NCBI GenBank assembly: GCA_964506725.1
Contig: CAZDLU010000008.1
Coordinates: 73 to 64,072, forward strand
Reading direction: 5' to 3'
Length of the DNA: 64,000 bases
DNA from: an uncultured Rhizobium sp.
GTDB lineage: Bacteria > Pseudomonadota > Alphaproteobacteria > Rickettsiales > UBA1997
Shown: positions 4,922 to 62,270 of the stretch, in pieces
How positions within the stretch are numbered: position 1 is the first letter of the stretch
Layout: each line of letters begins with the position of its first letter
Notes under the pieces: model-generated
Databases searched by the model: none
Told to the model about the DNA's origin: nothing
What the model saw: the letters and a program-made list of their open reading frames with translations, nothing else
Translations under genes and position numbers: made by a program

Positions 4922-4935
4922 GTTTATATTTTGCA

Positions 4936-37332: not shown

Positions 37333-37385
37333 TCATCCTCTCCTTGAGGGAGGATCGAAGCTACGCCATTAGCTTCGAGGAGGGG
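37333..37385. repeat. RPE-like element (family 1), partial copy
   Basis: tcatcctctccttgagggaggatcgaagctacgccattagcttcgaggagggg. This is the left terminus and central stems only. Confidence 0.75.
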
Positions 37386-37422
37386 CTGCGATGTAGAATA
37401 CAAATAATTTTTCTCACAATAA

Positions 37423-37538
37423 TTATCCTCCCCTTGAGGGAGGATCGAAGAGCGAAGCGATTCGAGGAGGGGTTTATCTGTGAGACGACCCCTCCTCGAA
37501 GCTGTTGTACAGCTTTGATCCTCCCAAGGGGAGAATAA
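37423..37538. repeat. RPE-like element (family 1), full intergenic copy
   Basis: 116 bp: ttatcctccccttgagggaggatcgaagagcgaagcgattcgaggagggg...cccctcctcgaagctgttgtacagctttgatcctcccaaggggagaataa. Confidence 0.85.
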
Positions 37539-40694: not shown

Positions 40695-41449
40695 GCAAAA
40701 TTATTTCAATTGAATTTCCACGATTTTCTTATCCTCCCTTTGAGAGAGGATCGAAGAGCGCAGCGATTCGAGGAGGGGTTAATCTCGGAGATCAACCCCT
40801 CCTCGAAACTGCTTACACAGCTTCGATCCTCCCTCAAGGGGAGGATGAAAACCAGCAAGATTTTGAAAAAACACATAATGACGATCACGGCGATGAAAGC
40901 AGAACCGTGCTTGGTTTTTGGATTTATCTAATGACTGACTGCATATTATTCGCCACTTTATTTGCGGTATTTGCCGTGCTAAGAAATAATTTTTTCGGTG
41001 GTCCAACCGGTAAAGAAATATTTGAATTATCTTATGTGTTAATTGAAACAATTTTACTTTTAATTAGCAGCGTAACTTACGGAATGGCGATGCTGGCTTT
41101 TTTTAAACGCGCCAAAAAACAAGTTATTTTTTGGCTGTTGATTACTTTTTTATGCGGCTTGATTTTTGTTTTGATGGAAATAAATGAATTTCATCATTTG
41201 ATTGCAGAAGGCCACGGACCCAGTAAAAGCGCCTTTCTATCAAGCTTTTTTACTTTAGTTGCAACTCATGGTTTGCACGTTACTTTCGGTTTAATTTGGA
41301 TGATCGTTATGATAATTCAGATTTTGCAAAGTCATGAATTTGATACGGTTCTTCGCAAACGCTTGACTTGCCTCAGTTTGTTTTGGCACTTTCTTGATAT
41401 TATCTGGATAGGAGTTTTTACCTTCGTTTATTTAATGGGAGTAATATGA
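40691..41449 (+). CDS. cyoC: cytochrome o ubiquinol oxidase subunit III carrying an in-frame 40-codon palindromic-element insertion
   Basis: 252 aa versus ~204 in E. coli. Conserved core from [14 protein letters not shown] to [21 protein letters not shown]. The start ATG overlaps the cyoB stop (ATGA) and is preceded by aggagg. Residues ~14-53 are encoded by the 120-bp element. Confidence 0.88.
40729..40848. repeat. RPE-like element (family 1) inserted in frame in cyoC
   Basis: 120 bp: ttatcctccctttgagagaggatcgaagagcgcagcgattcgaggaggggttaatctcggagatcaacccctcctcgaaactgcttacacagcttcgatcctccctcaaggggaggatga. No stop codon in the cyoC frame. Confidence 0.88.
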
Positions 41450-41754: not shown

Positions 41755-41779
41755 ATTTATTTAAAGAAGACTTTGTTTT

Positions 41780-41899
41780 TTATCCTCCCCTTGAGGGAGG
41801 ATCGAAGAGCACAGCGATTCGAGGAGGGGTGTGTCTCGGAGGTTAACTCCTCCTCGAAGCTGTTGGCACAGCTTCGATCCTCACTCAAGGGGAGGATAA
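41780..41899. repeat. RPE-like element (family 1) in the cyoD-cyoE spacer
   Basis: 120 bp: ttatcctccccttgagggaggatcgaagagcacagcgattcgaggagggg...ctcctcctcgaagctgttggcacagcttcgatcctcactcaaggggaggataa. Confidence 0.88.
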
Positions 41900-41928
41900 A
41901 ATATCGGGGCTTATTACGAAACTTTCCC

Positions 41929-43278: not shown

Positions 43279-43392
43279 GCGCTAATATAAGTTAATGAGG
43301 ATTTTTTTTAAGAATATTTTTTTAAAAGACAATTGGAAAAATAAAAGATAGTAGGAATAGGATTGATAAAAAGGGGCCAGGCTACTTTTACC

Positions 43393-43745
43393 TATGTTTA
43401 CCTTTTTCCTCACGATAAACGTGAAATGAAGAAACGGAGAGAAAATTGCCGAAAATTAAAGAAAATCCGGAAGAATTTGAAGACTAAGATAAACGTGAAA
43501 TGAATATTAAAAAAGCCGCGAAGTCCGCAAACGCAGGGGCTTGGAGAGGAATAAGAAAAATCACTAAAATCCACGAGAGATTTAGTGCGAAATTTTAAAT
43601 GGCGGTGTGGGTGATACCCATTTCGAACTATTCTCACAATTTTTAAAACCTTGATTTACATAGCTCCAGAGGCACTTTTCATATCAACCGGAAAGTTCGA
43701 AAGTGATTCAAGTGAACATGCGGGTGATACCTTTTGCGAACTAAC
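43393..43745 (+). repeat. island boundary repeat, copy A (tRNA-Ser-flank-like unit with pseudo tRNA 3' ends)
   Basis: Contains two ataaacgtgaaatg boxes (43415, 43489), gccgc.aa.tccgcaaacgcaggggcttggagagg, then tggcgg-tgtgggtgatacccatttcgaac (43600-43628) and a second ...gggtgataccttttgcgaac fragment. Alignable to copies B, C and D. Confidence 0.75.
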
Positions 43746-43796
43746 TTTTAGGACGCGTGAAAATTGATCACTGGATGCTCACCAAAAAAAATTAAT

Positions 43797-44405
43797 TTAT
43801 TGTTTTTTCCTTCCCATCCAAACCGTATGTCCCTGACAATTAGGATCTTCTTCTTTATACCTAACTACTTCAAATCCAAATTTTTTAAATAATTCCTGAT
43901 ATTCTTTTTTTGAAAGTGATGCGTGATAAAGATTTTCTCCATTATTATCGCTCCAAATTTCTCCTGCTTCTGGACCGCTAGTAAAAAGGAGGATTCCGCT
44001 CGGTTTGATCTGAGATTCAAAAATTTCAAACATCTTTCTTTGATCATCTTGCGTCAAATGAAAGAAACTGTCCCAGGCAATGATCGCATCAAATTTTTGG
44101 CGCAATTTTATTTTTCTCATATCGGCGAAAATAAAATTTGCATTTGGGAATTTTGCAGGAGGAAATTTCTTTAAAAAAAGATCCATCATTTTTTCGCTAC
44201 CATCAATGCCAGTTAAATCATAACCTTTTTCAATAAAAAATTTAGCAATCGGATCTCCTGCACCGCAGCCTAAATCAAGTATTGAAGAGCTTGTAGGAAT
44301 TGCCTTTACAATTAAATCTAAGTATTCTTTTTCTATCAAATTCTTCGATCGGTTTTGATCAAACCATTCCCCGATTTTATTGTAAGATTCGCAGATTTTT
44401 GTCAT
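43797..44405 (-). CDS. class I SAM-dependent methyltransferase (small-molecule type)
   Basis: 202 aa. Motif I ILDLGCGAGD, post-I LTGIDGSEKM, FDAIIAWDSFFHL. Confidence 0.8.
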   Translation of the reverse strand: MTKICESYNKIGEWFDQNRSKNLIEKEYLDLIVKAIPTSSSILDLGCGAGDPIAKFFIEKGYDLTGIDGSEKMMDLFLKKFPPAKFPNANFIFADMRKIKLRQKFDAIIAWDSFFHLTQDDQRKMFEIFESQIKPSGILLFTSGPEAGEIWSDNNGENLYHASLSKKEYQELFKKFGFEVVRYKEEDPNCQGHTVWMGRKKQ

Positions 44406-44438
44406 AAATTTTTTGTCATAAATAAGTACTGGCTAATT

Positions 44439-45491
44439 TTATTTAACTTTAGAAATCCAGTTTGGATCGCAATTAACGTTATATTTTTCAGGATCAAGAT
44501 TGGCTTTAATCCAAAGACGAAAAGCTATTATAAAGTCCTTATCTAAGCCTCGTAATTCTTTAAAGTTTGGTAAAGTCTTTAAGATAGCGCCAATCGCATT
44601 TTCACGAAGATTCATTGTCACACTATCATCAACAACATTATCCATATGTTTTAGTGCATTGATACAGAACATATCATTAATTTCTTTTCCTATTTCCGGA
44701 ATTGTTTTCTTTGGATCGTTTTCAGACTTGAGAACATAATCGGTAAAGTTTTCTTCCTCCTTATCCTTAATAAGTTGGCATAAAATTACATCAGCTGCCC
44801 CTGCAAGGGTTATTGAAGAAATGAGATCTTGACCTTTGAGAAACAAAATAATTGCTGTTTGAAGCTGGAATTCTGCTAAATCTATAATTTTATATGCTTT
44901 TGTAGAAGTATTTTTATCAATTTGATTTGGTAAAACTTCATGAGGTTTAGCTTTTTGACCATTTTTTTTCTCAAGTTGTTTTATTAACGGTTCATAATCT
45001 TTCATCATTTTTTGACCATCTTTCACTACCCATAAATAATTCAAAAAATTTCTTATGGCAGGCTCATTATCACCATATAGCTTGATGTGGTCGAGAACTG
45101 CAGCAGTAATTGCTTTCTCTGATGCATCTTCCCAATCCATCTCTAATTCATCTGGACAATTTTCCCCCTTATGTCTTAGCGAATAGATTCCAGTAATAGT
45201 TCTGAAGTGATTAATATATTTTGATTTTGAGTGAGCATCGTGCCCAAAAAGTTTTTGAAATAATGTCCGTCCATATTCAAAAAATGACTGCTGACCGCTA
45301 AATTCTAGAATTTTATGAAGAAGTTCTCCTGCTGCTCCAGCTAGAGTAACCGCTGATGGTAAATCTATTCTATTGAGAAATAACCAAATTGCTGTGTGAA
45401 GCTGCTGCTTTGCTATTTCACTTTTACTATAAGTCTTCTCAATATCTGCCCAAGAGTGATTTATTTTTTTCCAATAATCTGTTTCCATCAA
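44439..45491 (-). CDS. hypothetical protein made of two tandem homologous helical domains
   Basis: 350 aa. Half 1 QQLHTAIWLFLNRIDLPSAVTLAGAAGELLHKIL...IYSLRHKG. Half 2 FQLQTAIILFLKGQDLISSITLAGAADVILCQLI...INALKHMD. No family recognised. Confidence 0.6.
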   Translation of the reverse strand: MMETDYWKKINHSWADIEKTYSKSEIAKQQLHTAIWLFLNRIDLPSAVTLAGAAGELLHKILEFSGQQSFFEYGRTLFQKLFGHDAHSKSKYINHFRTITGIYSLRHKGENCPDELEMDWEDASEKAITAAVLDHIKLYGDNEPAIRNFLNYLWVVKDGQKMMKDYEPLIKQLEKKNGQKAKPHEVLPNQIDKNTSTKAYKIIDLAEFQLQTAIILFLKGQDLISSITLAGAADVILCQLIKDKEEENFTDYVLKSENDPKKTIPEIGKEINDMFCINALKHMDNVVDDSVTMNLRENAIGAILKTLPNFKELRGLDKDFIIAFRLWIKANLDPEKYNVNCDPNWISKVK

Positions 45492-45559: not shown

Positions 45560-46100
45560 TGACTAGAAATTCTCTAAATCTCCATTTCACGTTCACCGAA
45601 TTTTGATCACTAATATCAAGGCTTTACACAGTACGATTACAAAAAAATCTCCAATTTTCTCCGCTTTCCTGAGCAAAAAAAACAAATTTTCCAGCAATTG
45701 AAAATTCTCTGAGAAGTTTGCAAAAAGGTTCACCCGCTATGCAGTTATGTTTTCGAACTTTTTTGAGTAGAAGTGACCTAAAGCCAGTATTTACCGATGC
45801 GTACCGTTTTTAAAAAGGTGAACGTGAAGCAAAAAAATAGGGGTAAAAAATGGTAAAATTGAGGGGATTTTGAGAGAAAAATTTAATTTTTCTAACTCAC
45901 GGTGAACATCGATGCAGCTTTGATTTGTAAGGGTTTGTGAGGCTAAAATAGATGAAAAAAAGTAGTGGCGGGGCAGCTGATACAATTTGCGAACCATTCT
46001 CCAATCGTGGAAACCCTTGATTTTATTAGCTTCTCATGCGTACCGAAAAGTTAGAGAAAAATCATCTGGGTGCGGTTGATATAACCTGCGAACTTTTTGC
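45560..46100 (+). repeat. island boundary repeat, copy B (extended ~540-bp unit)
   Basis: Left part atctccatttcacgttcaccgaattttgatcac...; core with ggtgaacgtgaag and tggcgg-ggcagctgatacaatttgcgaacc (45966-45995); right part ...gggtgcggttgatataacctgcgaact. Collinear with copy C. Confidence 0.75.
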
Positions 46101-46187
46101 TGCTTTTGTTAAAAGTGCTCTGAAGCCTTGCTTATACTGGTCATTTCATGTTTACCTTCTGATCGGTTAGAAATTCCAAAACTACGA

Positions 46188-49100
46188 TCAAGAATTTTTA
46201 AACTCTGCCTGATAGTTGCCAGCAATTTTGGATTTTTTATTCAAGATGTAAGAGCCATTGATTTCAAGCCTGCCAAAGTTTCTTGAGTGACCGCCAATCA
46301 TCAATTTTTCACCAATTAACGTCCAAAAAATAGAACAATTATTTTCGTTTAAGAAAGTGCTGAAACTTTTTTTATCGATTAATAATGCTGAAGGATATTT
46401 TTTCTCAAAAATATCTGTAGTGAATGCAATTAAGTTATCTTCTTTATCAAAGAATCTGCCATCAAAATTTTGATGTAGATGCATTCTGTCGATGATCCAC
46501 TTGCAAGGAAGGCTAATTGAGATACCCTTATTCAATGAGTAATCTAAGGAGTTTGAGTAAGAGTCATCAGTTACGATCATTGGAATTTTTGATTCGTTTG
46601 GCTTCACTCCAACATTGTAATCTTCCTTCCTCAAATCTTGAAACGCAGAGTAATCAGGATATTCTCCTAAAAACGTTTCATAAAAAGAGTATGATTCAGG
46701 CATCCATCTTCCATAAAAATTAGTTTTTTTCATCCAGCTAAGCAGATTTTTAGAGTCTTCGTTTTTTACGATATAACTTTTTGTCATGTACCAAAGCTGC
46801 TGAACTGGTACATTATATTTATCGATGATTTCAGGTTGAATCTCGTCTTCCCATTGCATGTAGCTCTCTAGGACTAGCCATTCTTTGCCATTATCATCCG
46901 TAATTGAAATTATATTGGCTGGATTCGGCAAATCTTTTTCATTCCTCATCCATTCGTTATTATTTTTCTTCTTCTGCCAACCTCTGTAACGACCACCTGA
47001 TGATTTCCATTTTGAAAAAGTTACCAATTCTTTGAGGTGATCATCATTTCTTACGATGAATGATGGATCAACGTCTCTTAAATGGGGATGCCAAGGACCC
47101 TTATATTGTTTCTTCGATTTATCCCAATCGTTTCCATTAAATGCGAAATGATCTGATAATAATGCAGTAAATTCGTGATAAGCTATCAGTCGATATTTTT
47201 CCCATATTCTTTCAGAAACATTTTCTGTTTCACTTCCATAATATCTGCCTACCCTTTTATCAAACTCTCCGTGTAAGTCTGGATCATATCCCAATTCTAT
47301 TACTCGGTTAAAAATCCATCTTTTTGCAGTTTCTTTATCAAAAGATTTAAGCGGATCAATTAAATGACCTCGATCATCAAGAAATGGTTCTATCTCATTT
47401 TCAAAGTGATTTTTCTTCGTTGGAGACAGAGATTGTTTAAAGGTTACAAGAAATTTTTTCTGCTTTGTAATTCTTGCTTTCTTTCTTTTATTTTCCGCGA
47501 TTTGAAGGGTTTTTAAATGTTTCTCATCTTTGACGCCTACAAAATTAATTTTAATTTTCGGCATGTCGTCTACCAAAGATAAATTCCAGAACATGGAGTT
47601 TATTGCAGTGCCAAGCAGTTCTTTTTGCTCTTGCGATAAACTCTCTTTAAATTTTTCAAAAAGTTTTTCTCTATCTGGTTCGCCACGATATAATTTTCTG
47701 CTGCTCCAAGCTGATATTTGCATGTGCTTGTCAAAGTCTCCATATCCAGTTATGGAAAACTGCAAATTCGAAAATTTTGAGTTGTCGTCCTTTAAGTTAA
47801 ATTCTTTCTCCAAAAATTGCTGAGTAGGAATTTCGGGCCATTTACTTTTATAGGGAGGGTTAACCTTTTTCTCTAAAATGTTTTTTGGGCAAGTATCGTG
47901 TTTTAGCGCTACCTCGATAATGCCGCGCGCATAATCCCGAAGTAAAATATGTACAGGCGGTCTGTTGCTTTCAAAAATATTTTTATACACCCATTCGGCC
48001 AATTTTTTTAAACCAGCTTTGTTTGATGTATTTCTTAAGGCGCAACCATACGCAACCGCATATAATCTTTCTGCCACATAAGGATCGTTTACTTCTTTAA
48101 ATTCTTCTAAGATTTCAGAAATTAATTCTATTCTGTTATCTAAAATCGAGACCAATCCTTTTGTTGCCTTTCCCCTAACAAGTTTATTTGAGGATGTTAA
48201 GAACCAAGATAATGCTATAGAAACAAGAACTACTGAATCTTCATTTATATTTGATTTATTATGAGGTGACCAAGACCAATCCAACAATCTGCTGACAGCT
48301 TCATGTTCTCCATGTCCATAGTGCAAAAATGATAGCCACCATGAATCTCGCTGAGGCATAGTAAGTTTTGATAAGTACCTATGTAAAAATCTTGCATTAA
48401 ATGGATGATCTTTAATCGGAGAAACCGATAGAAAAGCATTTAATAATTTGTGATGTTCGGACTCTGTTCTGATGTATTTATTTATAATCTTCCTAACTTT
48501 CTCGAAAGAAAAGTCTTTAGGATTTCTCCATATTATGCTTGAGATAAAAGCATCTACAGCAGTACTTCTGAGATAGTCATCTGTCACCAAATACGGAGCG
48601 GCTTCGATGAATTCTATTTGTTGCAATTGCTCTGGGCATTCAATAGATAGAGCCTCGATAATGCCGTGGTTCCATGAGGTAGATATAAATTTTCCAAGAT
48701 CAGTACTCTTTGAAAAAAATGATCTAGCCTGGTTGATAATTTCCGTCCGGTTACGACCTTTATTTGATTTGTCAAATTGAGCCCTATATTGCTTAAAAAT
48801 ATATCTGGCTATGATGTGATCGCTGAATTTCTGAAAAGGAAACCTAACATTAAATTTACCCTTATTCTCGTAGTCTGGAACTCTTGTAATTAGCATGCTC
48901 TTTTCGAGCTGAATAATAAAAGCAGGAATATCATTAATCTCAGGATGGGATTCCTGAATAATTCTTACCAAGTCATCCTCTGGTATTCTGTCTTGATTCT
49001 TCTTAGCCATTTCTTCGGCAATTTTTTCTATCACCGTATCCCAAACAAAATATTGTCCTTTTGTATTTCGTCCTGTTTTTAGCCCTAGCTTCGCAGCAAC

Positions 49101-50381
49101 TTTATCAGCTGCCTCTTTCACGAAAGATTCAAAAATATGAGTTAGCCCAACTTGGCCTCTAAATGGTTTTTTCTTTTTAATTTCATTTACGGTTTTGTTT
49201 TTGAGTTGACCTTGCAGAGGATTATTAAAATCTCTTTTTTTATCCCCAAATGCTTCACAAAATAATAACAGAAAAAGTGGGTTTGTAAATTCTGGCGTTA
49301 AAAGCGGTATCTCCGGCAATGGTATAGAAAATGCCGTAAAAAATTTATTAACCGCTTCCCATTCTTTAAAGTGCAGGCCACGATGCTCTTCTGAAATAAA
49401 CAATAATTTTTGTTCTTCGTTTAAAACTTGGTTTTCAAAACCAGAGCGGATGCTTACAGCCAATGCAACATGAGGATATTTTTTTACTGCCGAAATTATA
49501 GATGAGATATTTTTTTGCCAAAAATCATGAGTTTTTGTTTCGTTTAAAGCATCCACAATTAATAGAGACCGACTCTCACTCTTCTTGCCAAGTTCATTCA
49601 ATTTTTGTAAGAAATGATCCTTATTACTAAAAGTATTACTAAGTCCTAATTGCTCTATAATCTGTAGCCAAACATCACCCTTATCTGAAAAATTTTCGCC
49701 AAATACCAGAATTGTAGGCAAGATTTTATTTTCGTTGCTTACTCTTCGCGCAACTAAATCACAGAATAAGTGTGTTTTTCCATTTCCAGCCGAGCCAGTA
49801 AGTAGTAAGAATTGATTATTTGACAGGCTAGCTTGTGAGCTAGAGGCTAACTCTTTTAAGTTGTTAACTATGCTTTGAGCTGCGTAAGAGTGGTTAATGC
49901 AGGAATTATACTTGCTCTCCAAAGAAGGCCTGTGCCCGTTAGCTATTACCGGCTCAGCTTCCTCATCCTTTTTTATCTGTTCTTTATCCTCCGCTGCCTT
50001 TCTTAGTTCTCTGACAAGTTCCCACGAAGCTTCTAAGAATGATTCTGAAGCTTCAGAAATTTTGTTCCATGGAATGACTTTGGTATTATATTTTTTGACA
50101 CCTGAAAGAATTTCGGATAGTGATTTTAGTCTAGTTCTAACGAGATCATAGTTTTTTTGTATCTCGTCATTTTTATATTTGCTGGCAATGTAATTGACTT
50201 CTTTCAGAAGTTTGCCGTGCTGCTTTCTGATCCTAAAATAAAATTCTTCTGTTCTGCTGATTCCATCAAAAATTTCAGAAATTGGCAAATCAACATTTAG
50301 CTCCGAAGTGTACCTTGGGCCGGCTTTTTGTTTGATTTCTTTTAGATGAGTTCTGTGCCAAATTTTATTATCCATGATCAT
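46188..50381 (-). CDS. giant STAND-like P-loop NTPase with HEAT-like repeats and a large uncharacterised C-terminal region (candidate single-gene defence protein)
   Basis: 1397 aa. Walker A LLLTGSAGNGKTHLF (~aa 194-208), Walker B SLLIVDALNE. A winged-helix-like segment. HEAT-like stretch (NKLVRGKATKGLVSIL...VNDPYVAERLYAVAYG). About 550 C-terminal aa with no recognisable motifs. Confidence 0.7.
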   Translation of the reverse strand: MIMDNKIWHRTHLKEIKQKAGPRYTSELNVDLPISEIFDGISRTEEFYFRIRKQHGKLLKEVNYIASKYKNDEIQKNYDLVRTRLKSLSEILSGVKKYNTKVIPWNKISEASESFLEASWELVRELRKAAEDKEQIKKDEEAEPVIANGHRPSLESKYNSCINHSYAAQSIVNNLKELASSSQASLSNNQFLLLTGSAGNGKTHLFCDLVARRVSNENKILPTILVFGENFSDKGDVWLQIIEQLGLSNTFSNKDHFLQKLNELGKKSESRSLLIVDALNETKTHDFWQKNISSIISAVKKYPHVALAVSIRSGFENQVLNEEQKLLFISEEHRGLHFKEWEAVNKFFTAFSIPLPEIPLLTPEFTNPLFLLLFCEAFGDKKRDFNNPLQGQLKNKTVNEIKKKKPFRGQVGLTHIFESFVKEAADKVAAKLGLKTGRNTKGQYFVWDTVIEKIAEEMAKKNQDRIPEDDLVRIIQESHPEINDIPAFIIQLEKSMLITRVPDYENKGKFNVRFPFQKFSDHIIARYIFKQYRAQFDKSNKGRNRTEIINQARSFFSKSTDLGKFISTSWNHGIIEALSIECPEQLQQIEFIEAAPYLVTDDYLRSTAVDAFISSIIWRNPKDFSFEKVRKIINKYIRTESEHHKLLNAFLSVSPIKDHPFNARFLHRYLSKLTMPQRDSWWLSFLHYGHGEHEAVSRLLDWSWSPHNKSNINEDSVVLVSIALSWFLTSSNKLVRGKATKGLVSILDNRIELISEILEEFKEVNDPYVAERLYAVAYGCALRNTSNKAGLKKLAEWVYKNIFESNRPPVHILLRDYARGIIEVALKHDTCPKNILEKKVNPPYKSKWPEIPTQQFLEKEFNLKDDNSKFSNLQFSITGYGDFDKHMQISAWSSRKLYRGEPDREKLFEKFKESLSQEQKELLGTAINSMFWNLSLVDDMPKIKINFVGVKDEKHLKTLQIAENKRKKARITKQKKFLVTFKQSLSPTKKNHFENEIEPFLDDRGHLIDPLKSFDKETAKRWIFNRVIELGYDPDLHGEFDKRVGRYYGSETENVSERIWEKYRLIAYHEFTALLSDHFAFNGNDWDKSKKQYKGPWHPHLRDVDPSFIVRNDDHLKELVTFSKWKSSGGRYRGWQKKKNNNEWMRNEKDLPNPANIISITDDNGKEWLVLESYMQWEDEIQPEIIDKYNVPVQQLWYMTKSYIVKNEDSKNLLSWMKKTNFYGRWMPESYSFYETFLGEYPDYSAFQDLRKEDYNVGVKPNESKIPMIVTDDSYSNSLDYSLNKGISISLPCKWIIDRMHLHQNFDGRFFDKEDNLIAFTTDIFEKKYPSALLIDKKSFSTFLNENNCSIFWTLIGEKLMIGGHSRNFGRLEINGSYILNKKSKIAGNYQAEFKNS

Positions 50382-50454
50382 ATTTTAAATTACATTCAGT
50401 CTGCAGAATAATATTTTTGTCTAGATTTGGATGCAGGGCAATAAAAAATTCAGC

Positions 50455-51040
50455 AAAATCTAAATAATCTCCAAATCTCCGTTTCATGTACACCGAATTT
50501 TGATCAGCAAAATCAAGGCCTCACATAATATTATTCGTAAAAAATTCTCTGATTTTCTTTATTTCAAAAACATTTCAGCTACACAGTCAGCCCCTCAAAC
50601 AAAAGTTCGCAGGTTATATCAACTGCCACCACTTTGAGAAGTTCGATGAAAAAGCTACGAGACCAGTATTTATCGATGTGTACCTTTTTCACGCGGTAAA
50701 CGTGAAACGGAGAAATGGAGACAAAAATTGCTGAAAAATTGCAAAATTTTGGAAATTTTTCGGGGAGTTTTTGAGCGGAAGGTAAACGTGAAATGTAAGT
50801 CGTAAAATCTGCGGAGCGTTGCCAATAAAGGCGGGATCAGGCGCGTTGAGAATTTTTAAAAATTTACTCGGAGATTTTGGTTCGCAAAAAAAGTAGTGGC
50901 GGTGGATGGGGGTTAGTTTGCTAAATTGGTCGCACTTTTTTGGAATCAGTAAAATCAAGGTTTCAAAGCCATTTTCATCCATACCGAAAAGTTCGATAAA
51001 AATCAGATGCTTTCACCTCAACCACTTTGCGAAACTTCGT
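50455..51040 (+). repeat. island boundary repeat, copy C (extended ~585-bp unit)
   Basis: Left part atctccgtttcatgtacaccgaattttgatcagc...; core gaagttcgatgaaaaa...ccagtatttatcgatgtgtacc...ggtaaacgtgaaac...ggtaaacgtgaaatg...ggttcgcaaaaaaagtag-tggcgg-tggatggggg (50897-); right part ...accgaaaagttcgataaaaatcag.... Confidence 0.75.
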
Positions 51041-51051
51041 AAGGGTTTTTG

Positions 51052-51067
51052 CCGTGAGTTCGAATCT
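51052..51067 (+). repeat. inverted 16-nt copy of the tRNA-Ser T-arm
   Basis: ccgtgagttcgaatct on the plus strand is identical to the T-stem/loop segment of the minus-strand tRNA-Ser at about 62196-62211. The downstream acceptor part is degenerate. Confidence 0.6.
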
Positions 51068-51187
51068 TCCTGCGCTACACAAATTGGACATAATTGGACA
51101 TTTTTGTGGATATTTGCTGATTTGTTAAACCGATTGCCTTATAGTAGCAATATTGCATAAATCGCAATGTTTCTACTATGACATGCA

Positions 51188-52875: not shown

Positions 52876-53736
52876 ATGAAAAAATCGCTAAAATATCTTC
52901 CGGAATCTAAACAAAACGAATTGCAAAAAATCATTTCTGCAATTCAAAAAACTTGTAAAGATGTTGAGAAGATTATTCTGTTTGGTTCTTACGCGCGCGG
53001 GGATTACAAGGAAGCCAAAGACTTAAAAGATGATAGAAGAACTGGTCACATTTCTGACTATGATATTCTGGTGGTGACAGAAAAAAAGAAATCCACAGAC
53101 AAGTTTTCTTCTTGGAATAAAACAGAAAAACTAAAACTAACCGCACCAGTTAGAGCAATCGCTCATGATATTGAAAGCCTGAATATTAACCTTGCCGAAG
53201 GGCAATATTTCTTTACCGACATTAAGAAAGAAGGTATCTCGCTCTTCGATTCTAAAAAATATAAGCTGGCCAATAAAAGAAAATTAAAACCAAAAGAAAA
53301 ACAAAGGATTGCGCAAGATCACTTTGAGGAATGGTTTAGAAGTGCTGTTAATTTTTTTGATGCGTTTGAATTAATGATGTCAAAGGAGCAATATAAAAAT
53401 GCAGCATTTCAATTGCATCAGGTTGCAGAATCATGCTACAAAACAATTCTTTTGGTTTTCACCAATTACAATCCCAACGAGCATTTTCTATGGATGCTGG
53501 GACAAAGATCTGCCAAATATCACCCTGATCTAAAAACTCTTTTTCCTAAAAAAAATCAGAAAGATAAGGATCGATTTAAGCTACTAGATGATGCTTATAT
53601 TGGTGGCAGGTATGATCCGGACTTTCGAATTTCAAAACGTGATTTGGAAATTTTGGCAAAAGATGTGAAGAAATTATTGGAGCTTACTGAAGAAATCTGT
53701 GAGCAAAAAATACAAAGTTTAATCGAGAAAAAATAA
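52876..53736 (+). CDS. fused nucleotidyltransferase (MNT) - HEPN domain protein
   Basis: 286 aa. N-terminal MNT motif (LFGSYARGDYKE...SDYDILVV). C-terminal HEPN-like helical domain (AQDHFEEWFRSAV...AFQLHQVAESCYK...AYIGGRYDPDF). Confidence 0.75.
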   Translation: MKKSLKYLPESKQNELQKIISAIQKTCKDVEKIILFGSYARGDYKEAKDLKDDRRTGHISDYDILVVTEKKKSTDKFSSWNKTEKLKLTAPVRAIAHDIESLNINLAEGQYFFTDIKKEGISLFDSKKYKLANKRKLKPKEKQRIAQDHFEEWFRSAVNFFDAFELMMSKEQYKNAAFQLHQVAESCYKTILLVFTNYNPNEHFLWMLGQRSAKYHPDLKTLFPKKNQKDKDRFKLLDDAYIGGRYDPDFRISKRDLEILAKDVKKLLELTEEICEQKIQSLIEKK

Positions 53737-55163
53737 TGCCAATTTTACACTGGTTAGATAGGGACAAGACTATAAAGCAAACAAGCCGAGCCCCCTATCG
53801 TTTGCTTGAAGTTGATCCTCAACTTTCCTATGGGGATCAAAATTCGCAAAATCTCTTAATTCAAGGTGATAATTTAGAAGCTCTAAAAGCTCTTCTTCCT
53901 TACTACGCTGGCAAAGTAAAATGCATTTTTATCGATCCACCATACAACACAAAAAGCGCATTCGAGCATTACGATGATAATTTAGAGCATACAAAGTGGC
54001 TGGAGATGATGTATCCAAGATTGGAATTGTTGCGTGAGTTGTTGAGTGAGGATGGAAGTATCTGGGCAACTATTGATGATAACGAGGTTCACTATCTAAA
54101 AGTAGTGATGGATGAAGTTTTTGGGCGTAAAAATTTTATTTCAAATGTGGTCTGGCAGCACAGCATACAAGGACAAGGGTATCAAGGAAAATTCACACTG
54201 AACCATAATCATATTCTGTGCTATAAAAAATCTGATAACTTTTTATTAGGAGTGCTTCCGAGAGAAGAGCATCACAACAAAGCTTATTCCAATCCAGACA
54301 AAGATCCTAAAGGATTATGGAGAACTGGAGATGTTAGAAATGGATTATACCGACCAAACCTAAAATATAACATCACAACACCGAGTGGAAAGGTAATAGA
54401 GCCACCAGCTAATGGTTGGAGATGGTCACAAGACACTCTTGCTGAAAAAATCAAATCTGGAGAGATTGTTTTTTCTCCAGATGAAACAAGGATAATCAGA
54501 AAAATATATCTCTGCAATCAGGAAGGACGAGTTCCGGATTCTTGGTGGAATGGTGACGAAATGGGAACAACTCGTCAGGCAAAATCAGAGCTAAAAAGTA
54601 TTTTTGAAGAAGATCTGTTTGATACCCCAAAGCCGGAAAAACTGATTCAGAAAATTTTACAGCTTTCAACAAAGGAAAATGATTTAGTTCTCGACTCATT
54701 TCTTGGCTCCGGCACTACTGCTGCAGTTGCTCACAAAATGAATCGTCAATGGATTGGAATTGAAATGGGTGAGCATGCAAAGACTCACTGCGCTGCTCGT
54801 TTACAAAAAGTGATTAACGGTGAACAAGGTGGAATTTCAAAAGATGTTAATTGGCAAGGTGGTGGTGGATTCCATTTTTACAGTCTTGGTGAAGCGATTT
54901 TTGATGAAGATGGTCAGATTAATAAAAGCATCAGGTTCGAGCACCTAGCAGCACATATTTGGTTTTCAGAAACCAAAACTACTTTTAACAAAAAAGAAAA
55001 ATCCACACTTTTGGGCGCTCATAATGGCGTTGCTTATTATCTGTTATTCAACGGTATTTTGGGTGATAAAAGCATTTCTGGTGGAAATGTTTTAACCTCA
55101 AAAACTTTGGCAAAAATTCTTTCAGCTCTACCAAATGGCTTTGGAGCCAATAACTTCCGCTGA
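53736..55163 (+). CDS. mod: beta-class N6-adenine/N4-cytosine DNA methyltransferase (type III Mod-like), apparently 3'-truncated and without a Res partner
   Basis: 475 aa. Motif [11 protein letters not shown] precedes motif [14 protein letters not shown] (beta order). [18 protein letters not shown] box. The conserved tail breaks off after ...[14 protein letters not shown], and the last ~9 codons overlap copA. Confidence 0.7.
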
Positions 55164-57144
55164 AAATAATGGCTTTGATGAAGAATTTTCTTGTTTGAAG
55201 AAACGATTTTTAATCGCGCTGATTCTGACTTTGCCGATTTTATTTTTGGAAATGGGCGGGCATTTTTTTCAGTTTATTGATGTCAGAGTTTCGCAGGTGA
55301 TTCAGATGATTTTATCATTCGCTGTCGTGTTTTGGAGTGGTTGGATATTTTTTGTCAAAGCTTTCGAATCGGTAAGAAATCGTATGCCGAACATGTTTAC
55401 ACTTATTGCTCTTGGAACCGGTGTAGCATGGATTTACAGCTTCGTTGCAATTTTATTTCCGCAAATTTTCCCTACTGAATTTTTAGATGATCAAGGTCAC
55501 ATCGCTGTTTATTTTGAATCGGCTGCTGTCATTACTTTACTAATTTTGCTTGGCCAAATTCTTGAAGTTAAAGCGCGCAAAAATACCTCCAGTGCCATCT
55601 CTGCTTTATTAAAACTTACTCCAACAAAAGCCTATCGTTTTACTAAAAATGGCGAAGAAGAAATTAGCATCGAGCAAATTCAAGTTGGAGATTTATTGCG
55701 CGTTCGTCCTGGCGATAAAATTCCAACTGATGGTGAAATTACTGAAGGCACAAGCAACATTGACGAATCCATGATTACCGGTGAATCAATGCCGGTTAAA
55801 AAGCAAATTGGTGATAAGGTGATTGGAGCTACAATCAATCAAGATGGCAGCTTTGTGATGAAAGTTTTGCAAGTTGGTGAAAGCACTGTTCTCCAACAAA
55901 TAATCAAAATGGTAACAGAGGCCAAGCAAGGACAAACCAAAATTCAGAAATTGGTTGATCAGGTTGCGGCATGGTTTGTGCCACTCGTTATTGTAATTGC
56001 TATCGCAACATTTTTTAGTTGGATGATTTTTGCTGATAATTCGGCGCATGGTTTGATTGCAGCAGTGTCGGTTCTGATTATTGCCTGTCCTTGCGCTCTT
56101 GGCCTTGCAACTCCAATGTCAATAATTGTCGCGCTTGGAAAAGGAGCGGCAAATGGCGTGTTGGTTAAAAATGCTGAGAGCTTAGAAAAAATGGCGAAAG
56201 TAAAAGTGATCGTTGTTGATAAAACCGGAACGCTAACGGAAGGAAAACCACAACTAACAAAAATTATTACAGTAAAAGATTTTACCGAAGAAAAAATTAT
56301 TCAACTTGCTGCAAGCCTTGAAAATCAGAGTGAACATCCACTTGCTAAAGCAATCACTAACTATGCCAAAGAAAAGAAAGTCTCTTTTTTGAAAGTAGGA
56401 AATTTTACAACTCCAATTGGAAAAGGAGTTAGCGGTGAAGTTGAAAATCAAAAAGTTTTAATCGGCAATGCCAATTTCATGGCAGAAAATTCCGTTGATT
56501 ATGAAGAATTAAAGGCAGCGGCGGAAGAATTGAAAACAGGCGGCGCAACGGTGATTTTCATCGCAATTAATCAAAAGCTCGCCGGTTTGTTTGCCATTGA
56601 AGATGCGCTAAAATCAACAAGTCTCGCAGCTGTAAAAGAGCTACAAAATCTTGGTCTCCGAATTGTCATGCTTACCGGAGATAGTAAAAAAACTGCTGAC
56701 AAAGTTGCTAAAGAATTAGGAATCACAGAAGTATTTGCTGAAATTCTTCCGCAAGAAAAAAGTAAAATTATTGCCCAATTAAAAGCTGAAGGAAATGCTG
56801 TAGCAATGGTCGGAGATGGCATTAATGATGCTCCAGCCTTAGCAATTGCCGATGTTGGAATTGCAGTGGCAAATGGAACTGATGTCGCAATTGAAAGTGC
56901 CGGAATTGTTCTGCTACATGGTGATTTGGCAAAGCTGGTTAAAGCTTTTCATCTTTCGCAAAAAACTATCCGCAATATTAAGGAAAATTTGTTTTTTGCT
57001 TTTGGTTACAATGTGTTCGCGATTCCTTTGGCTGCTGGTTTATTTGGTTTTCAATTGAGTCCGATTATTGCTGCGGCAGCGATGGCTTTAAGCGATGTAT
57101 CAGTGGTGGCAAATGCTCTTCGTCTAAAAACAATTAAAATTTAA
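55135..57144 (+). CDS. copA: copper-translocating P1B-type ATPase lacking the N-terminal HMA domain
   Basis: 669 aa. CPC motif ([13 protein letters not shown]), [19 protein letters not shown]. The sequence starts in the linker just before TM1 ([19 protein letters not shown]). No GMTCxxC domain. Confidence 0.88.
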
Positions 57145-57145
57145 A

Positions 57146-58762
57146 ATGCGAAAATACTTCCTGATTTTTTTACTTCTTTTGGGGTCTGCTCCAGCCTTGG
57201 CTAAAACCTATGATCTTGAAATCAAAAAGCAGAATGTTTTTATCACCGGAAAAGCAATTGAAGCAATAACCATCAATGGTGGAGTTCCTGGTCCGACCTT
57301 GCGCTTAAAAGAAGGAGAAGATGTTACGATCAATGTCAAAAACTCGATGGATGAAACTACCTCAATTCATTGGCACGGAATTTTACTTGATGGAAAATTT
57401 GATGGTGTGCCTGGTTTAAATGGTTTTCACGGTATTGCGCCACATACAACTTTCACCTATAAATTCAAAGTCAGGCAAAAAGGAACTTACTGGTATCACT
57501 CCCATTCAAACTTGCAGGAGCAGCAAGGTGTTTATGGCTCAATTGTAATTGAGCCAAGCGAAGCCAAAGCTGACCGTGAGCATGTTATTGTTCTCTCTGA
57601 TTTTACTGAGGAAAATCCCAACACAGTTTTAAACAATCTCAAAATTGATTCCGGCTATTATAATTTTAACAAGCGCACAATTTTTACTTTTTTCTCTGAC
57701 ATAAAAAAGAACGGATTTTCTGCAACGCTGCGCAATTACATGGATTGGGGTTCAATGCGCATGGATCCTACAGACTTATCAGATGTCACCAGATATTATT
57801 TCTTAACAAACGGCAAAACCGCAGAGCAAAATTGGACGGGAATTTTTAAGAAAGGTGAACGCGTAAAACTTCGCTTCATCAATGCTTCAGCGATGACAAT
57901 TTACGACATTTCAATCCCTGGTCTAAAAATGAAGTTGGTTGAAGCGGATGGTCAACCGGTAAAACCAACCTCAATTGACGAATTCCGTTTTGGCGTTGCC
58001 GAAACTTACGATGTGATTGTTGAGCCAAAAGAAGATAAGGCTTACACAATTTTTGCCGAATCAATTGACCGCACCGGATACGCCAGAGGAACTCTTGCAC
58101 CAAAAGAAGGAATGGAAGGCAAAATTCCACCAATGCGTCCAAGGGCGGTTTTAACTATGGCAGATATGGCAATGGGAGGTATGGATCATAGCAGCATGCA
58201 AGGAATGAGTGATATGAAAAATATGGATCACTCAAAAATGGGTCATGACATGAGTGGCATGGATATGGGCGGAATGAATATGGCCGAGGGGATGAATAAT
58301 GTAAAAAGTGGCTGGGCGCAGCGTGGTACTCCAAAAGGTAATAAAGCTTTAGAATATTCCGATCTAATTTCTCTTTACCCTCAAAAAGATTTACGTCAAC
58401 CAACTCGTGAGATTGAATTCAAATTTGGCGGCACGATGAATCGCTATATCTGGACGATCAACGGCGAAAAATTTCCAAAACCAATGCGCTTAAAATATGG
58501 AGAACGAGTGCGTCTACAGTTTGTTAATGAAACCATGATGGCACATCCAATTCATTTACATGGTATGTTCATGCAGCTTGAAAATGGTCAGCCAATGAAA
58601 TGGATGCCAAATAAACACACAGTTCTTTTGCCTCCCGCACAAACTGTTACATTGCTTTTAACCGCCGATGAAGCGGGCGAATGGGCACTCCATTGTCACC
58701 TTCTTCTGCATATGGCAAGCGGCATGATGACTTCTGTTACCGTTGATAAGGAGGGCAAATAA
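57146..58762 (+). CDS. pcoA: periplasmic multicopper oxidase, CopA/PcoA family
   Basis: 538 aa. Signal peptide. Cu-binding HWHG, WYHSH, HPIHLHG, HCHLLLHMASGM. Met/His-rich loop (MADMAMGGMDHSSMQGMSDMKNMDHSKMGHDMSGMDMGGMNM). Confidence 0.9.
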   Translation: MRKYFLIFLLLLGSAPALAKTYDLEIKKQNVFITGKAIEAITINGGVPGPTLRLKEGEDVTINVKNSMDETTSIHWHGILLDGKFDGVPGLNGFHGIAPHTTFTYKFKVRQKGTYWYHSHSNLQEQQGVYGSIVIEPSEAKADREHVIVLSDFTEENPNTVLNNLKIDSGYYNFNKRTIFTFFSDIKKNGFSATLRNYMDWGSMRMDPTDLSDVTRYYFLTNGKTAEQNWTGIFKKGERVKLRFINASAMTIYDISIPGLKMKLVEADGQPVKPTSIDEFRFGVAETYDVIVEPKEDKAYTIFAESIDRTGYARGTLAPKEGMEGKIPPMRPRAVLTMADMAMGGMDHSSMQGMSDMKNMDHSKMGHDMSGMDMGGMNMAEGMNNVKSGWAQRGTPKGNKALEYSDLISLYPQKDLRQPTREIEFKFGGTMNRYIWTINGEKFPKPMRLKYGERVRLQFVNETMMAHPIHLHGMFMQLENGQPMKWMPNKHTVLLPPAQTVTLLLTADEAGEWALHCHLLLHMASGMMTSVTVDKEGK

Positions 58763-59502
58763 TGAGAGTAAAATTTTTCTTAAAATCAGGTCTGATATTT
58801 TTCTTTTTTGGCGGAATTGCTTTTGCCCAAAATGTAGAACCAAAAATGGATCATGGTGATGATCATGCGCAAATTTATCACGCTTTTACTGTCGAAGCAG
58901 ATGTTGGTGAAGCTCAAGATGGCCGCTCAAAAGGCTTCGATCTTTCCGGTTGGGTTGGTGGCGATTACAACCGACTATGGATTAATAGTGAGAAAAAAAA
59001 TTACGGAAATTATGAGGAAATATTTGAAGCCCAAGCGCTTTATAGTCGTAACGTTGCTCAATTTTGGGATGCGCAAATCGGTGTCGCTCATGATTTTAGC
59101 ACCGATTTTACTCCAACAAATGTAAATTATTTTGTAATTGGTGTTGAAGGTCTGGCGCCACAAATGTTTGAAACCAAGGCGCAATTTTTTCTAAGTGATG
59201 AGGGAAACTACAGTGCCAGATTCAAGCAGGAAGTTGATATTTTTCTGACACAACGATTGATTACCCAACCTTATTTTGAGACCGAAATTTTTGCTCAGGA
59301 TGTTGAAAAGTTAGAAGTGAAATCAGGAATTTCTGATTTTGAAGTTGGTATTGCAACACGCTACGAAATCAGCCGCAAGTTCGCTCCATACTTCGCTCTA
59401 CGTTATCACACTAAAACTTTTGGCACGGCAGATTTAGCAAGGCAGCTTGGAGAAAGAGTCGATAATTTTATCGTTGCCGCAGGGATAAGATTGAGATTTT
59501 AG
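58762..59502 (+). CDS. pcoB: copper resistance protein B (outer-membrane), CopB/PcoB family
   Basis: 246 aa. Signal peptide and beta-barrel-like C-terminal part ending ...AAGIRLRF. Its start overlaps the stop of the MCO gene. Confidence 0.8.
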   Translation: MRVKFFLKSGLIFFFFGGIAFAQNVEPKMDHGDDHAQIYHAFTVEADVGEAQDGRSKGFDLSGWVGGDYNRLWINSEKKNYGNYEEIFEAQALYSRNVAQFWDAQIGVAHDFSTDFTPTNVNYFVIGVEGLAPQMFETKAQFFLSDEGNYSARFKQEVDIFLTQRLITQPYFETEIFAQDVEKLEVKSGISDFEVGIATRYEISRKFAPYFALRYHTKTFGTADLARQLGERVDNFIVAAGIRLRF

Positions 59503-59588
59503 TGAAATTTTTAGCGACTTTTTGCTAAAAATCCGTCTAAAATATTTCCGCTAAGGAAATAATTTTTATTAACAAAACTTTTAAAATT

Positions 59589-59906
59589 ATGAAAAAAATA
59601 TATCTGCTTATTGCCACCATTTTTTTATCTTCTTCAGTTGCGGCTAATGCGGAGCAATCTCATTCTACCCATCAGGATGAAATGAAGAATATTGATCACA
59701 GCAATGCCGCTCATAAGTCTGAAATGGAAGCTGTAGATCATGAAAAAGCTGCTCATAAATCTCAAATGAAAGCGGTAGATCACACAGACAAAATTCATAA
59801 AAATAAAATGAAAGCTGTAGATCGCGCTAACAAACATCATAAATCTAAAATGAGTGAATCGCAGGAAAAAGAATCCGATGATCACGGCAGTCATCATGTT
59901 AACTAG
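59589..59906 (+). CDS. secreted His/Lys/Met-rich tandem-repeat protein, putative periplasmic metal-binding protein
   Basis: 105 aa. Signal peptide, then about 4.5 copies of a 14-aa unit (HKS.MKAVDH....) and a DDHGSHHVN tail. It sits between the copper and arsenic genes. Confidence 0.6.
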   Translation: MKKIYLLIATIFLSSSVAANAEQSHSTHQDEMKNIDHSNAAHKSEMEAVDHEKAAHKSQMKAVDHTDKIHKNKMKAVDRANKHHKSKMSESQEKESDDHGSHHVN

Positions 59907-59999
59907 AAAAAATCATGTGATCATGGCGACAGAATAAAATTATTCTTCTGTCGTCACATTTGAATGAATTATCAATTATAGCAATATCAATTTTTCTCA

Positions 60000-61007: not shown

Positions 61008-61010
61008 AAA

Positions 61011-61822: not shown

Positions 61823-61934
61823 AACTGCAATATAATTAATCTAAATATCCAGAATTATGGATATTCCTAAACAAAAGTCAATATGCGACAAGTTTGCAAA
61901 AAAGTCGGAAACATCACTTGAGGTAGCATAGCAT

Positions 61935-62180
61935 GAAGTTCGATGAAAAACCCACGAAGCCAGCATTTATCAATGCTTACCGTTTTCAAAAAGGTAAACG
62001 TGAAGCGGAGAAACAGAGAGAAAAATACCCCAAAAATGCAGAAAATTTTGCTGACAAGAGAGAGGAAGGTAAGCGTGAAATGGAAATTCAAATGTGGAGA
62101 GAAGCCGCAAACACAGGGGCTGGAGACGGGTAGAGAATTTTGCTAAAACCTATGGGAGATTCGGTTCGCAAAGGTATGTA
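61935..62180 (+). repeat. island boundary repeat, copy D (reference copy abutting the tRNA-Ser 3' end)
   Basis: gaagttcgatgaaaaa...ccagcatttatcaatgcttaccg...ggtaaacgtgaag (61993)...ggtaagcgtgaaatg (62068)...gccgcaaacacaggggctggagacgg...ggttcgcaaaggtatgta, followed directly by tggcgg of the tRNA. Confidence 0.75.
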
Positions 62181-62270
62181 TGGCGGACAGGGTGAGATTC
62201 GAACTCACGGAACGCTTGCACGTTCGGCAGTTTTCAAGACTGCTGCCTTAAACCGCTCGGCCACCTGTCC
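62181..62270 (-). tRNA. tRNA-Ser (anticodon UGA)
   Basis: Minus-strand read: GGACAGGTGGCCGAGCGGTTTAAGGCAGCAGTCTTGAAAACTGCCGAACGTGCAAGCGTTCCGTGAGTTCGAATCTCACCCTGTCCGCCA. 7-bp acceptor stem, anticodon stem GCAGT/ACTGC with loop CTTGAAA, long variable arm, T-arm GTGAG-TTCGAAT-CTCAC, encoded CCA. Confidence 0.93.

Follow-up and report, generated by a model that had tools for sequence, protein, structure and literature searches.

Avs2 (AVAST type 2) proteins are anti-phage STAND NTPases in which a helical extension, a TPR region and a beta-rich sensor form a pocket that binds the ATPase domain of the large terminase (PMC13601566, bioRxiv 10.64898/2026.08.25.746987). After terminase binding, an ATP-bound C4 tetramer is formed, which activates an N-terminal effector (PMC13601566, PMC11564622). 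In the EcAvs2-terminase complex the partners are present 1:1 within the C4 tetramer, 2833 A^2 are buried, a nuclease domain is partly unfolded, the helical extension makes up part of the terminase-binding surface, and tetramerisation gathers the N-termini (PMC13601566). Here we examine a solitary gene, avs2, on the minus strand at positions 46188-50381 of a 64,000-nucleotide stretch (the window) of contig CAZDLU010000008.1, from an uncultured alphaproteobacterium. The locus as a whole is very probably explained by avs2 encoding an Avs2 protein without an effector and forming one cassette of a stack at a tRNA-Ser(TGA) gene.

Of the described systems, EcAvs2 (PDB 9O4E; Evans et al. 2026, PMC13601566) is colinear with the avs2 product from the helical extension to the C-terminus, through the Walker A and B motifs, the TPR region and the sensor; it differs in having an N-terminal effector of about 165-180 amino acids (aa), of unknown activity, which is absent from our protein. 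KpAvs2 (Bechon et al. 2024, PMC11564622) belongs to the same sensor-ATPase core family. Its N-terminal nuclease kills by non-specific DNA degradation, the K71A substitution abolishes defence, and its gene forms an operon with Avap1 and Avap2, whereas avs2 has neither a nuclease nor an accessory gene. The VcAvs2-trypsin-MBL system (bioRxiv 10.64898/2026.08.25.746987) has the same core, including the helix-rich insertion that is found only in Avs2 and is essential in VcAvs2, and senses terminase with two ATP molecules; its fused trypsin-like domain and its separate MBL nuclease gene are both missing here. SeAvs3 (PDB 8DGC) shares the C-terminal terminase sensor fold, combined, however, with another TPR architecture and a Cap4 nuclease effector, and there is no family match at the sequence level. 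The C-terminal sensor binds the terminase ATPase domain in both EcAvs2 and SeAvs3. Thus far the family, its trigger and its structure are already known, and annotation pipelines would call this gene avs2.

The avs2 product is a member of the Avs2 family by sequence

A first-pass annotation of this DNA, made from the letters alone, had described an open reading frame (ORF) of 1397 aa with the motifs GSAGNGKT and LLIVDALNE, and had proposed that it encodes an uncharacterised antiviral STAND protein of the Avs type. The ORF and both motifs were readily located on the minus strand, and the Avs assignment was correct; it is the word "uncharacterised" that has to go. The product passes the threshold of the curated NCBIfam equivalog NF041813 ("AVAST type 2 anti-phage system protein Avs2"; 1126 bits, cut-off 1000). 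A PADLOC scan, which the annotation had advised, gives matches to six Avs2 models, the best of them PDLC02164 (1181 bits, residues 8-1396). In a sequence search of PDB the sole match is the solved structure of EcAvs2, 9O4E (E=6.7e-180), and the alignment is colinear from end to end (query 19-1394, chain 180-1482 of 1484). The last 581 residues taken alone still align with EcAvs2 at E=1.7e-74 (query 817-1394, chain 919-1482). Plasmid homologues are named avs2 in RefSeq. All this argues for a full-length Avs2 core and for membership in a known anti-phage family. The database copy of the protein begins two codons later than the 1397-aa ORF, and nothing else in our searches is more than 52-54% identical to it.

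Matches to P-loop and STAND families in Pfam are all sub-threshold, covering residues 164-350, with nothing beyond residue 350. In particular, the NACHT domain (PF05729) reaches only 17.7 bits where 26.7 are required, so that the earlier description of the NTPase as NACHT-like finds no support in Pfam, and nSTAND6 scores 18.8 against 27.7. An "unknown" label based on Pfam was considered and rejected; defence-specific and curated models identify Avs2.

Domain organisation and sensor residues

The domain map is given in Table 1. The AlphaFold2 (AF2) model of residues 1-420 has a pLDDT (predicted local distance difference test) of 81; it is all-helical to about residue 187 and takes a Rossmann-like beta/alpha form, that of the nucleotide-binding domain (NBD), from residue 191. 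Foldseek matches of this model are AAA+ and STAND proteins alone (ORC, TnsC, Avs4, Apaf-1). The N-terminal helical region of some 190 aa, noticed at first pass, is indeed predicted to be helical, and alignment equates it with the helical extension specific to Avs2. The "HEAT-like repeats" of the same annotation are likewise a helical repeat region, which is better read as the TPR region of EcAvs2. The model of the C-terminal 550 aa is helical to about model residue 310 and beta-rich thereafter. Its only Foldseek matches at E<=0.001 are the Avs3-terminase chains of 8DGC (best E=3.8e-5); this model is only moderately confident (pLDDT 64), and the fold match is supportive rather than decisive.

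Of 110 positions that are conserved in the two Avs2 clades alike, the avs2 product keeps 102, including those of Walker A and B and the EcAvs2 contact residues D981, E1444 and E1462 (here D882, E1358 and E1373). The position of EcAvs2 W1266 is occupied by Y, as in most Avs2. In EcAvs2 the bridging ATP is bound by D981, T1128, R1130, R1132 and E1364, of which T1128, R1130 and R1132 are replaced here by Y, S and E (E1051), respectively. Three of the five, T1128, R1130 and E1364, are variable across the whole Avs2 family, and EcAvs2 defence survives single alanine mutations of bridging-ATP residues (PMC13601566).

Absence of the effector is a trait of a large clade

In most Avs2 proteins the N-terminal effector is about 165 aa long, and its usual place is N-terminal to the helical extension. 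In the avs2 product it is missing: the matches begin at position 175 of the PADLOC profile and at residue 180 of the 9O4E chain. The ORF cannot be extended in the 5' direction: two codons ahead of the ATG there is an in-frame TAA. Searches with 39 effector domains from relatives found no remnant anywhere in the 64-kb window, and no second Avs2 is present there. The relatives with about 165 extra N-terminal residues carry, at the position of the KpAvs2 nuclease, a domain of the PD...ECxW...WQAKFF type, for which "Mrr-like" is a name taken from the literature; Pfam did not recognise the effector domains of about 165 aa in these relatives.

The absence of an effector is a property of one large clade, not a local truncation. 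We compared 60 full-length relatives drawn from named genomes. Nineteen, including the avs2 product, have no N-terminal extension, and they form one clade in a neighbour-joining tree; the remainder have 140-263 extra N-terminal residues, except for two with about 41. When 1.84 billion cluster representatives were searched exhaustively and without a profile, 548 matched residues 1-420 at E<=1e-30, and about 58 of the best 150 of these 548 representatives (clusters at 50% identity) start where the avs2 product starts. Identity between the effector-less and the effector-bearing clade is about 27-33%. Within the effector-less clade the first ~20 residues are conserved (e.g., H12 and L13). Clade-specific conserved residues number just 11, all of them conservative changes and all inside the ATPase, and therefore give no sign of a new active site.

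The effector-less clade includes many genomes from the candidate phyla radiation (CPR), DPANN and other archaea. Close relatives (44-53% identical) are found in Paceibacterota, Roizmanbacteria, Gracilibacteria, Saccharibacteria, Omnitrophota and one metagenome-assembled genome (MAG) of Rickettsiales, and also in Pacearchaeota, Methanosarcinales and Thermoplasmatota. The occurrence of close relatives in bacteria and archaea alike indicates that the gene has moved widely between domains of life. NCBI records of the effector-less sub-branch are already labelled Avs2. A text search of the literature, which did not extend to the 2022 Science paper defining Avs1-4, found no discussion of effector-less Avs.

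The solitary state of avs2, also remarked on at first pass, holds in the window and beyond it. The gene is monocistronic in the window, separated from its neighbours by repeat-unit gaps of 696 and 869 bp; a scan for promoters and terminators gave nothing above shuffles. Gene-by-gene inspection of 5-kb flanks at 23 effector-less loci found no recurrent partner family and no shared small ORF on the same strand. The commonest neighbours were serine recombinases (7 loci), DNA methyltransferases (4) and Fic proteins (3). An effector gene that had been split off or lay upstream, or a conserved partner, was thus rejected as an explanation, with no remnant in the window and no recurrent neighbour at the 23 loci.

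Selection on avs2

Alleles of avs2 about 95-96% identical to ours are present in other lake and aquatic metagenomes. Among 52 listed allele differences, 38 are synonymous and 14 non-synonymous, as compared to a synonymous share of 0.20 expected at random (p=2e-16), and every indel within the ORF is a multiple of 3. An intact ORF, the synonymous excess, in-frame indels and the preserved conserved positions lead us to judge the gene functional and under strong purifying selection.

In another lake population, the sequences flanking an avs2 allele (~96%) are unlike those of the window within 2-5 nt of the ORF ends (46186, 50376). In the same population, AbiE and a copy of the right-hand portion of unit B (see below) are found on other contigs, all of them short. 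Cassette junctions may therefore differ between lake populations.

Repeat units and the tRNA-Ser gene

Two direct repeats of ~550 bp, units B and C, had been reported on either side of avs2, and they are confirmed. The two are collinear (45563-46095 and 50460-51037; 362 identical among 616 columns, 73% of ungapped positions), with a local score of 94.5 as compared to 14.5 +/- 2.1 for shuffles. The inverted repeat of 24 bp is also real, with GGTTGATATAACCTGCGAACTTTT at 46074-46097 and its inverted copy at 50601-50624 (23/24 match; shuffles gave none); the positions 46073-46096 and 50594-50617, given before, were slightly off. It extends to 31 nt with 90% complementarity (46067-46097 and 50601-50631; 28/31).

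Beyond the units listed earlier there are two more homologous ones, A and D, and D is the flank of a tRNA-Ser gene. Units A-C align with D at 65-70% identity over 160-310 bp, with scores of 47-97 (shuffles, ~13 +/- 2). The A-D alignment enters the 3' end of the tRNA by 25 nt, and the C-D alignment by 6 nt; TGGCGGTGTGGGTGATACCCATTTCGAACT of unit A is the counterpart of TGGCGGACAGGGTGAGATTCGAACT of tRNA-Ser. When compared to shuffles, the tRNA-like core has p ~0.02 in unit A and ~0.04 in unit B. The motif GTRAACGTGAAR is strongly over-represented (12 matches, 0.8 expected) and occurs also at 61994 and 62069, beside tRNA-Ser; so is GATAYN4TGCGAAC (5 matches, 0.5 expected). Units A, B and C have in common a motif that occurs in five copies, one of them being the motif of the inverted repeat. 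ORFs of 68-97 aa within the units were rejected as genes, being of low complexity and lacking conservation at the protein level. Viral contigs do not contain the unit motif.

On sequence grounds, the repeats are best regarded as junction relics of tRNA-Ser(TGA), with no part in the mechanism of the protein. The simplest reading would be that elements inserted serially at the tRNA-Ser 3' end, each leaving a copy of the junction, and that rearrangements followed. An inverted tRNA-Ser fragment (51033-51075) just upstream of abiEi implies either an inversion or an element that brought its own junction.

Islands linked to tRNA genes are known to grow by tandem accretion, and some of the elements in them are cis-mobilisable, lack an integrase and are flanked by att sites (ICESt1/ICESt3). 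The locus in the window resembles them in abutting a tRNA 3' end, in having direct repeats with tRNA-3'-end-like cores, in its mutually unrelated cargo modules (defence, copper and arsenic resistance), and in the different cargo found at this tRNA in a relative. It differs in that the units are unusually long (300-580 bp) and have an arm of ~250 bp, the cores are degenerate, some copies are inverted, and there is no integrase within 64 kb.

A metagenome scan with the unit motif found three related contigs. In one of them (L086), the tRNA-Ser gene is intact and a B-type unit comes immediately after it, with 88.5% identity to unit B over 401 bp. The same units delimit other cassettes there: an AriA-like ATPase with a PD-T4-7-like protein; Fic-MerR; and DUF4238 with an S-adenosylmethionine (SAM) methyltransferase that is 93% identical to the one in the window. 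In another (L085), a D-type unit abuts the 3' fragment of a different tRNA-like sequence. Upstream of the tRNA-Ser gene on L086 (1-4930) there is no ORF of >=100 aa, and this may be an RNA operon or a region of heavy decay.

Table 1. Coordinates of avs2, its predicted domains and motifs, and the repeat units in the window
Feature	Position	Strand	Remarks
avs2 coding sequence, effector-less Avs2 (AVAST type 2) STAND NTPase	46188..50381	-	1397 aa, ATG start
Helical extension specific to Avs2, aa 1-190	49812..50381	-	Aligns to EcAvs2 from residue 180; AF2 all-helical, high pLDDT
Walker A GSAGNGKT, aa 196-203	49773..49796	-	G196, G199, G201, K202 conserved in both Avs2 clades
Walker B LLIVDALNE, aa 273-281	49539..49565	-	D277, A278, N280, E281 conserved in both Avs2 clades
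STAND ATPase module (NBD, helical and winged-helix subdomains), aa ~191-620, approximate boundaries	48522..49811	-	Weak Pfam, AF2, Foldseek
TPR-like helical sensor region, aa ~621-1150, approximate boundaries	46932..48521	-	Contiguous alignment with EcAvs2 TPR domain
ERIWEKYRLIA, aa 1057-1067, divergent form of the universal Avs2 motif ERIGKKYQWIA, adjoining the bridging-ATP loop	47181..47213	-
Beta-rich C-terminal sensor, aa ~1151-1397	46191..46931	-	Alignment to EcAvs2 residue 1482/1484; AF2 beta-rich
Unit A	43321..43769	+	Homology to unit D enters tRNA-Ser 3' end by 25 nt; TGGCGGTGTGGGTGATACCCATTTCGAACT at 43600-43629
Unit B, non-coding, putative tRNA-Ser-proximal junction relic	45563..46120	+	Two degenerate tRNA-3'-end-like motifs
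Inverted repeat, left arm (31 nt)	46067..46097	+	Second tRNA-end-like motif of unit B
Unit C, non-coding, upstream of avs2	50460..51075	+	Arm with two GTAAACGTGAAA motifs (50696-50707, 50782-50793)
Inverted repeat, right arm	50601..50631	-	Inverted copy of the same motif inside unit C
tRNA-Ser 3' fragment	51033..51075	+	Opposite orientation to the live tRNA; 16/16-nt T-arm match AGATTCGAACTCACGG (other strand)
Unit D, flank directly 3' of tRNA-Ser plus 25 nt of the tRNA 3' end	61886..62205	+	Putative template of A-C
tRNA-Ser (anticodon TGA), putative insertion hotspot	62181..62270	-	ARAGORN; Rfam tRNA model 58.3 bits

Alternative readings

That the last ~550 residues of the protein, in which no motif had been recognised, constitute a novel effector, such as a nuclease or a pore, of an uncharacterised STAND protein, is hard to credit and in effect refuted. 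The silence of Pfam past residue 350 would agree with it, but EcAvs2 can be aligned over the full length of the protein, residues 817-1394 included, and the curated Avs2 models are passed. The stretch is accounted for by the C-terminal terminase sensor and the last part of the TPR region before it; the structure-based search for a cryptic nuclease or pore that had been recommended returned Avs3-terminase chains as the sole significant matches, and the conservative clade-specific residues, confined to the ATPase, offer no new catalytic signature. It is also improbable that avs2 is a decaying relic, drifting after the loss of its effector. Besides the loss itself, this explanation can draw on the divergence of the protein, which stands out in its clade: of the 197 columns in which 25 relatives show no variation, it departs at 21, and the others at 1-10, and four of its changes fall within a single motif shared by all Avs2. 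Against it, 1397 codons are uninterrupted, the effector-less state is ancient and clade-wide, the allele differences are mostly synonymous and the indels in-frame only, and the Walker motifs are retained with nearly all of the universal positions. More plausible, though still unlikely, is a sensor-only Avs2 that signals to an effector encoded elsewhere, as one half of a sensor/helper pair, with the N-termini recruiting or activating an unlinked protein. The clustering of N-termini in the EcAvs2 tetramer, the conserved first ~20 residues of the effector-less clade, and the loss of function in characterised Avs upon deletion of the effector, which makes an output module seem necessary, are all in its favour. 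Yet none of the 23 loci has a conserved neighbour, neither a second Avs2 nor a remnant of an effector domain exists in the window, and the spread of the single gene over CPR, DPANN, other archaea and Proteobacteria would require a nearly universal partner.

As to the repeats, they might be the ends of a transposon, with terminal inverted repeats of 31 nt, or sites of the integron attC type. The avs2 segment 46067-50631 is in fact bounded by the 28/31 inverted repeat, repeated units between unrelated genes do resemble an integron array, and the flanks of avs2 differ in another lake population from a few bases outside the ORF. We consider this improbable, because no transposase, IntI or other integrase was found, the arms show no target-site duplication, and the units, at ~500 bp (300-580 bp) rather than hairpins of 60-120 bp, align to the flank and the 3' end of tRNA-Ser, the inverted-repeat motif being only one of five copies of a motif in the units.

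Several observations weigh against an effector-less but functional Avs2 in a tRNA-linked stack, the reading that we prefer. The divergence of the avs2 product within its clade includes charge-changing substitutions at or near the bridging-ATP site: an E stands in the place of EcAvs2 R1132, a position at which 54 of 58 relatives have R, and ERIGKKYQWIA has become ERIWEKYRLIA; the ligand pocket may therefore be altered. Mutation or deletion of the effector ends defence or toxicity in every Avs tested (KpAvs2 K71A, PMC11564622; PMC13581612). It follows that terminase binding alone was insufficient in those proteins, at the expression levels used, which speaks against simple sequestration. At the level of the island, Rfam finds no tRNA in the units, a scan at E<=10 giving chance-level matches only, and their tRNA-like cores are degenerate. 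Finally, no integrase domain was found in the island ORFs scanned, and tblastn with two tyrosine integrases and one serine recombinase was empty; with neither an integrase nor its remnant in the window, the cassettes are either fixed now or mobilised in trans.

A possible mechanism

With EcAvs2 and VcAvs2 as the template, the helical extension, the TPR region and the C-terminal sensor of the avs2 product would form the pocket for the terminase ATPase domain, and the capture of terminase would allow the protein, by way of its intact Walker A/B module, to form tetramers in an ATP-dependent manner. The sequence data themselves establish family membership, the homologous domains, the lack of an effector and of a linked partner, and purifying selection; the binding of terminase and the tetramerisation are modelled on these homologs, and the output step is an inference. 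Since the N-terminal effector present in all characterised Avs2 is missing and the clade spreads as a solitary gene, the output would have to be intrinsic to the sensor-ATPase core.

Several forms of output can be envisaged. It is quite possible, by analogy with the buried interface and the partly unfolded nuclease domain of the EcAvs2 complex, that terminase would be captured and inactivated in a 4:4 complex, so that packaging is blocked without cell death. It seems doubtful that the clustered N-termini recruit an unlinked, widely conserved host factor, and distinctly unlikely that the oligomer itself is toxic; there is also a slight chance that the protein has no current defence function. 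We suggest, tentatively, that the effector-less clade represents a distinct type of NLR-like immunity, in which a pattern-recognition STAND protein with no death effector traps terminase in an ATP-locked 4:4 complex as a non-suicidal, stoichiometric block of packaging.

Other genes of the island and of the window

The island extends over ~42.8-62.2 kb, and comprises, in this order, a 157-aa orphan; a SAM methyltransferase with a 350-aa orphan; avs2; AbiEi/AbiEii; MNT-HEPN; a type-III-like DNA methyltransferase; copper genes (P-type ATPase, multicopper oxidase, CopB); and arsenic genes (ACR3, ArsC). The AbiE, MNT-HEPN and methyltransferase neighbours named at first pass are therefore real, as AbiEi/AbiEii, a fused MNT-HEPN and methyltransferases, and its picture of a defence-rich island stands. 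The copper and arsenic resistance genes (55135-61830) occupy the tRNA-proximal part of the island, where the ORF of a helix-turn-helix regulator adjoins unit D; being in the same island, they show that defence and metal cargo share one insertion hotspot.

The SAM methyltransferase (43797-44405) forms a cassette with the 350-aa ORF (44439-45491, minus strand) and has a weak PADLOC match to mad2. The 350-aa ORF has no match in Pfam, NCBIfam or PADLOC, is a singleton among 15 billion proteins, and is internally duplicated (LHTAIWLFLNRIDLPSAVTLAGAAGELL... and LQTAIILFLKGQDLISSITLAGAADVIL...). The related methyltransferase on L086 (11665-13158, against 43548-44416 of the window; 93% at the nucleotide level) is accompanied by DUF4238, which is not homologous to the 350-aa orphan, and this suggests a methyltransferase module with swappable partners. 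Directly after AbiEi/AbiEii, at 52876-53736 (plus strand), a 286-aa protein joins an MNT/Pol-beta nucleotidyltransferase to HEPN, in place of the usual two-gene pair. The ORF at 53736-55163 (plus strand) encodes a type-III-like N6/N4 DNA methyltransferase (PADLOC MTase_III, 583 bits) with no adjacent Res subunit, and may be an orphan methylase or a remnant of type III restriction; its 3' end overlaps the start of the ORF of a CopA-type P-type ATPase (55135-57144, plus strand) by 29 nt.

Outside the island, nested-palindromic elements of ~126 nt occur at 33446-33471, 37335-37450, 40725-40850 and 41776-41901. Their core, CTTCGATCCTCCCTCAAGGGGAGGAT, has 7 matches in place of 0 expected. The two full copies, 87% alike, are located inside the cyoC-like and cyoE/UbiA ORFs, at their predicted 5' ends; Pfam domains in these ORFs are matched only from about aa 70-73 onwards. 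The elements resemble repetitive extragenic palindromic (REP) sequences or insertions similar to the Rickettsia palindromic element, placed in frame or just upstream of the true starts. Large ORFs of 811, 1451, 661 and 499 aa have no Pfam match (21245-23680, 27029-31384 and 1498-4939, all on the minus strand), and a MutS-like protein of 979 aa (23950-26889) has MutS domains I and V only.

The complete sequence is present in one freshwater metagenome run, and the proteins of the window are singletons in the collection of 15 billion proteins. CyoB is 79% identical to a protein of one Alphaproteobacteria MAG and 83% identical to another protein. The host had been presumed to be an intracellular bacterium with little exposure to phages. 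This is not borne out: the source is a freshwater metagenome, and none of the window genes scanned is diagnostic of an intracellular lifestyle; surprise at finding phage defence in such a host therefore rests on a premise that the sequence does not show.

Implications

As an annotation, this is an ordinary result, another Avs2 gene in a defence island. The locus also shows defence-gene exchange in an uncultured freshwater lineage, with cassettes at one tRNA-Ser gene separated by long, apparently junction-derived repeats, and with different cassettes at the same tRNA-Ser site on a related contig. The mechanistic studies of Avs consulted here treat the N-terminal effector as indispensable, and the way in which the effector-less branch produces an output is a testable question. 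The avs2 gene of the window is a clean example for it: the large sub-branch to which it belongs lacks both an effector and a linked partner, yet is under strong purifying selection. If a terminase-trapping mode of immunity is true, it could explain the spread of avs2 as a lone gene and its commonness in lineages with small genomes (CPR, DPANN, Rickettsiales-like).

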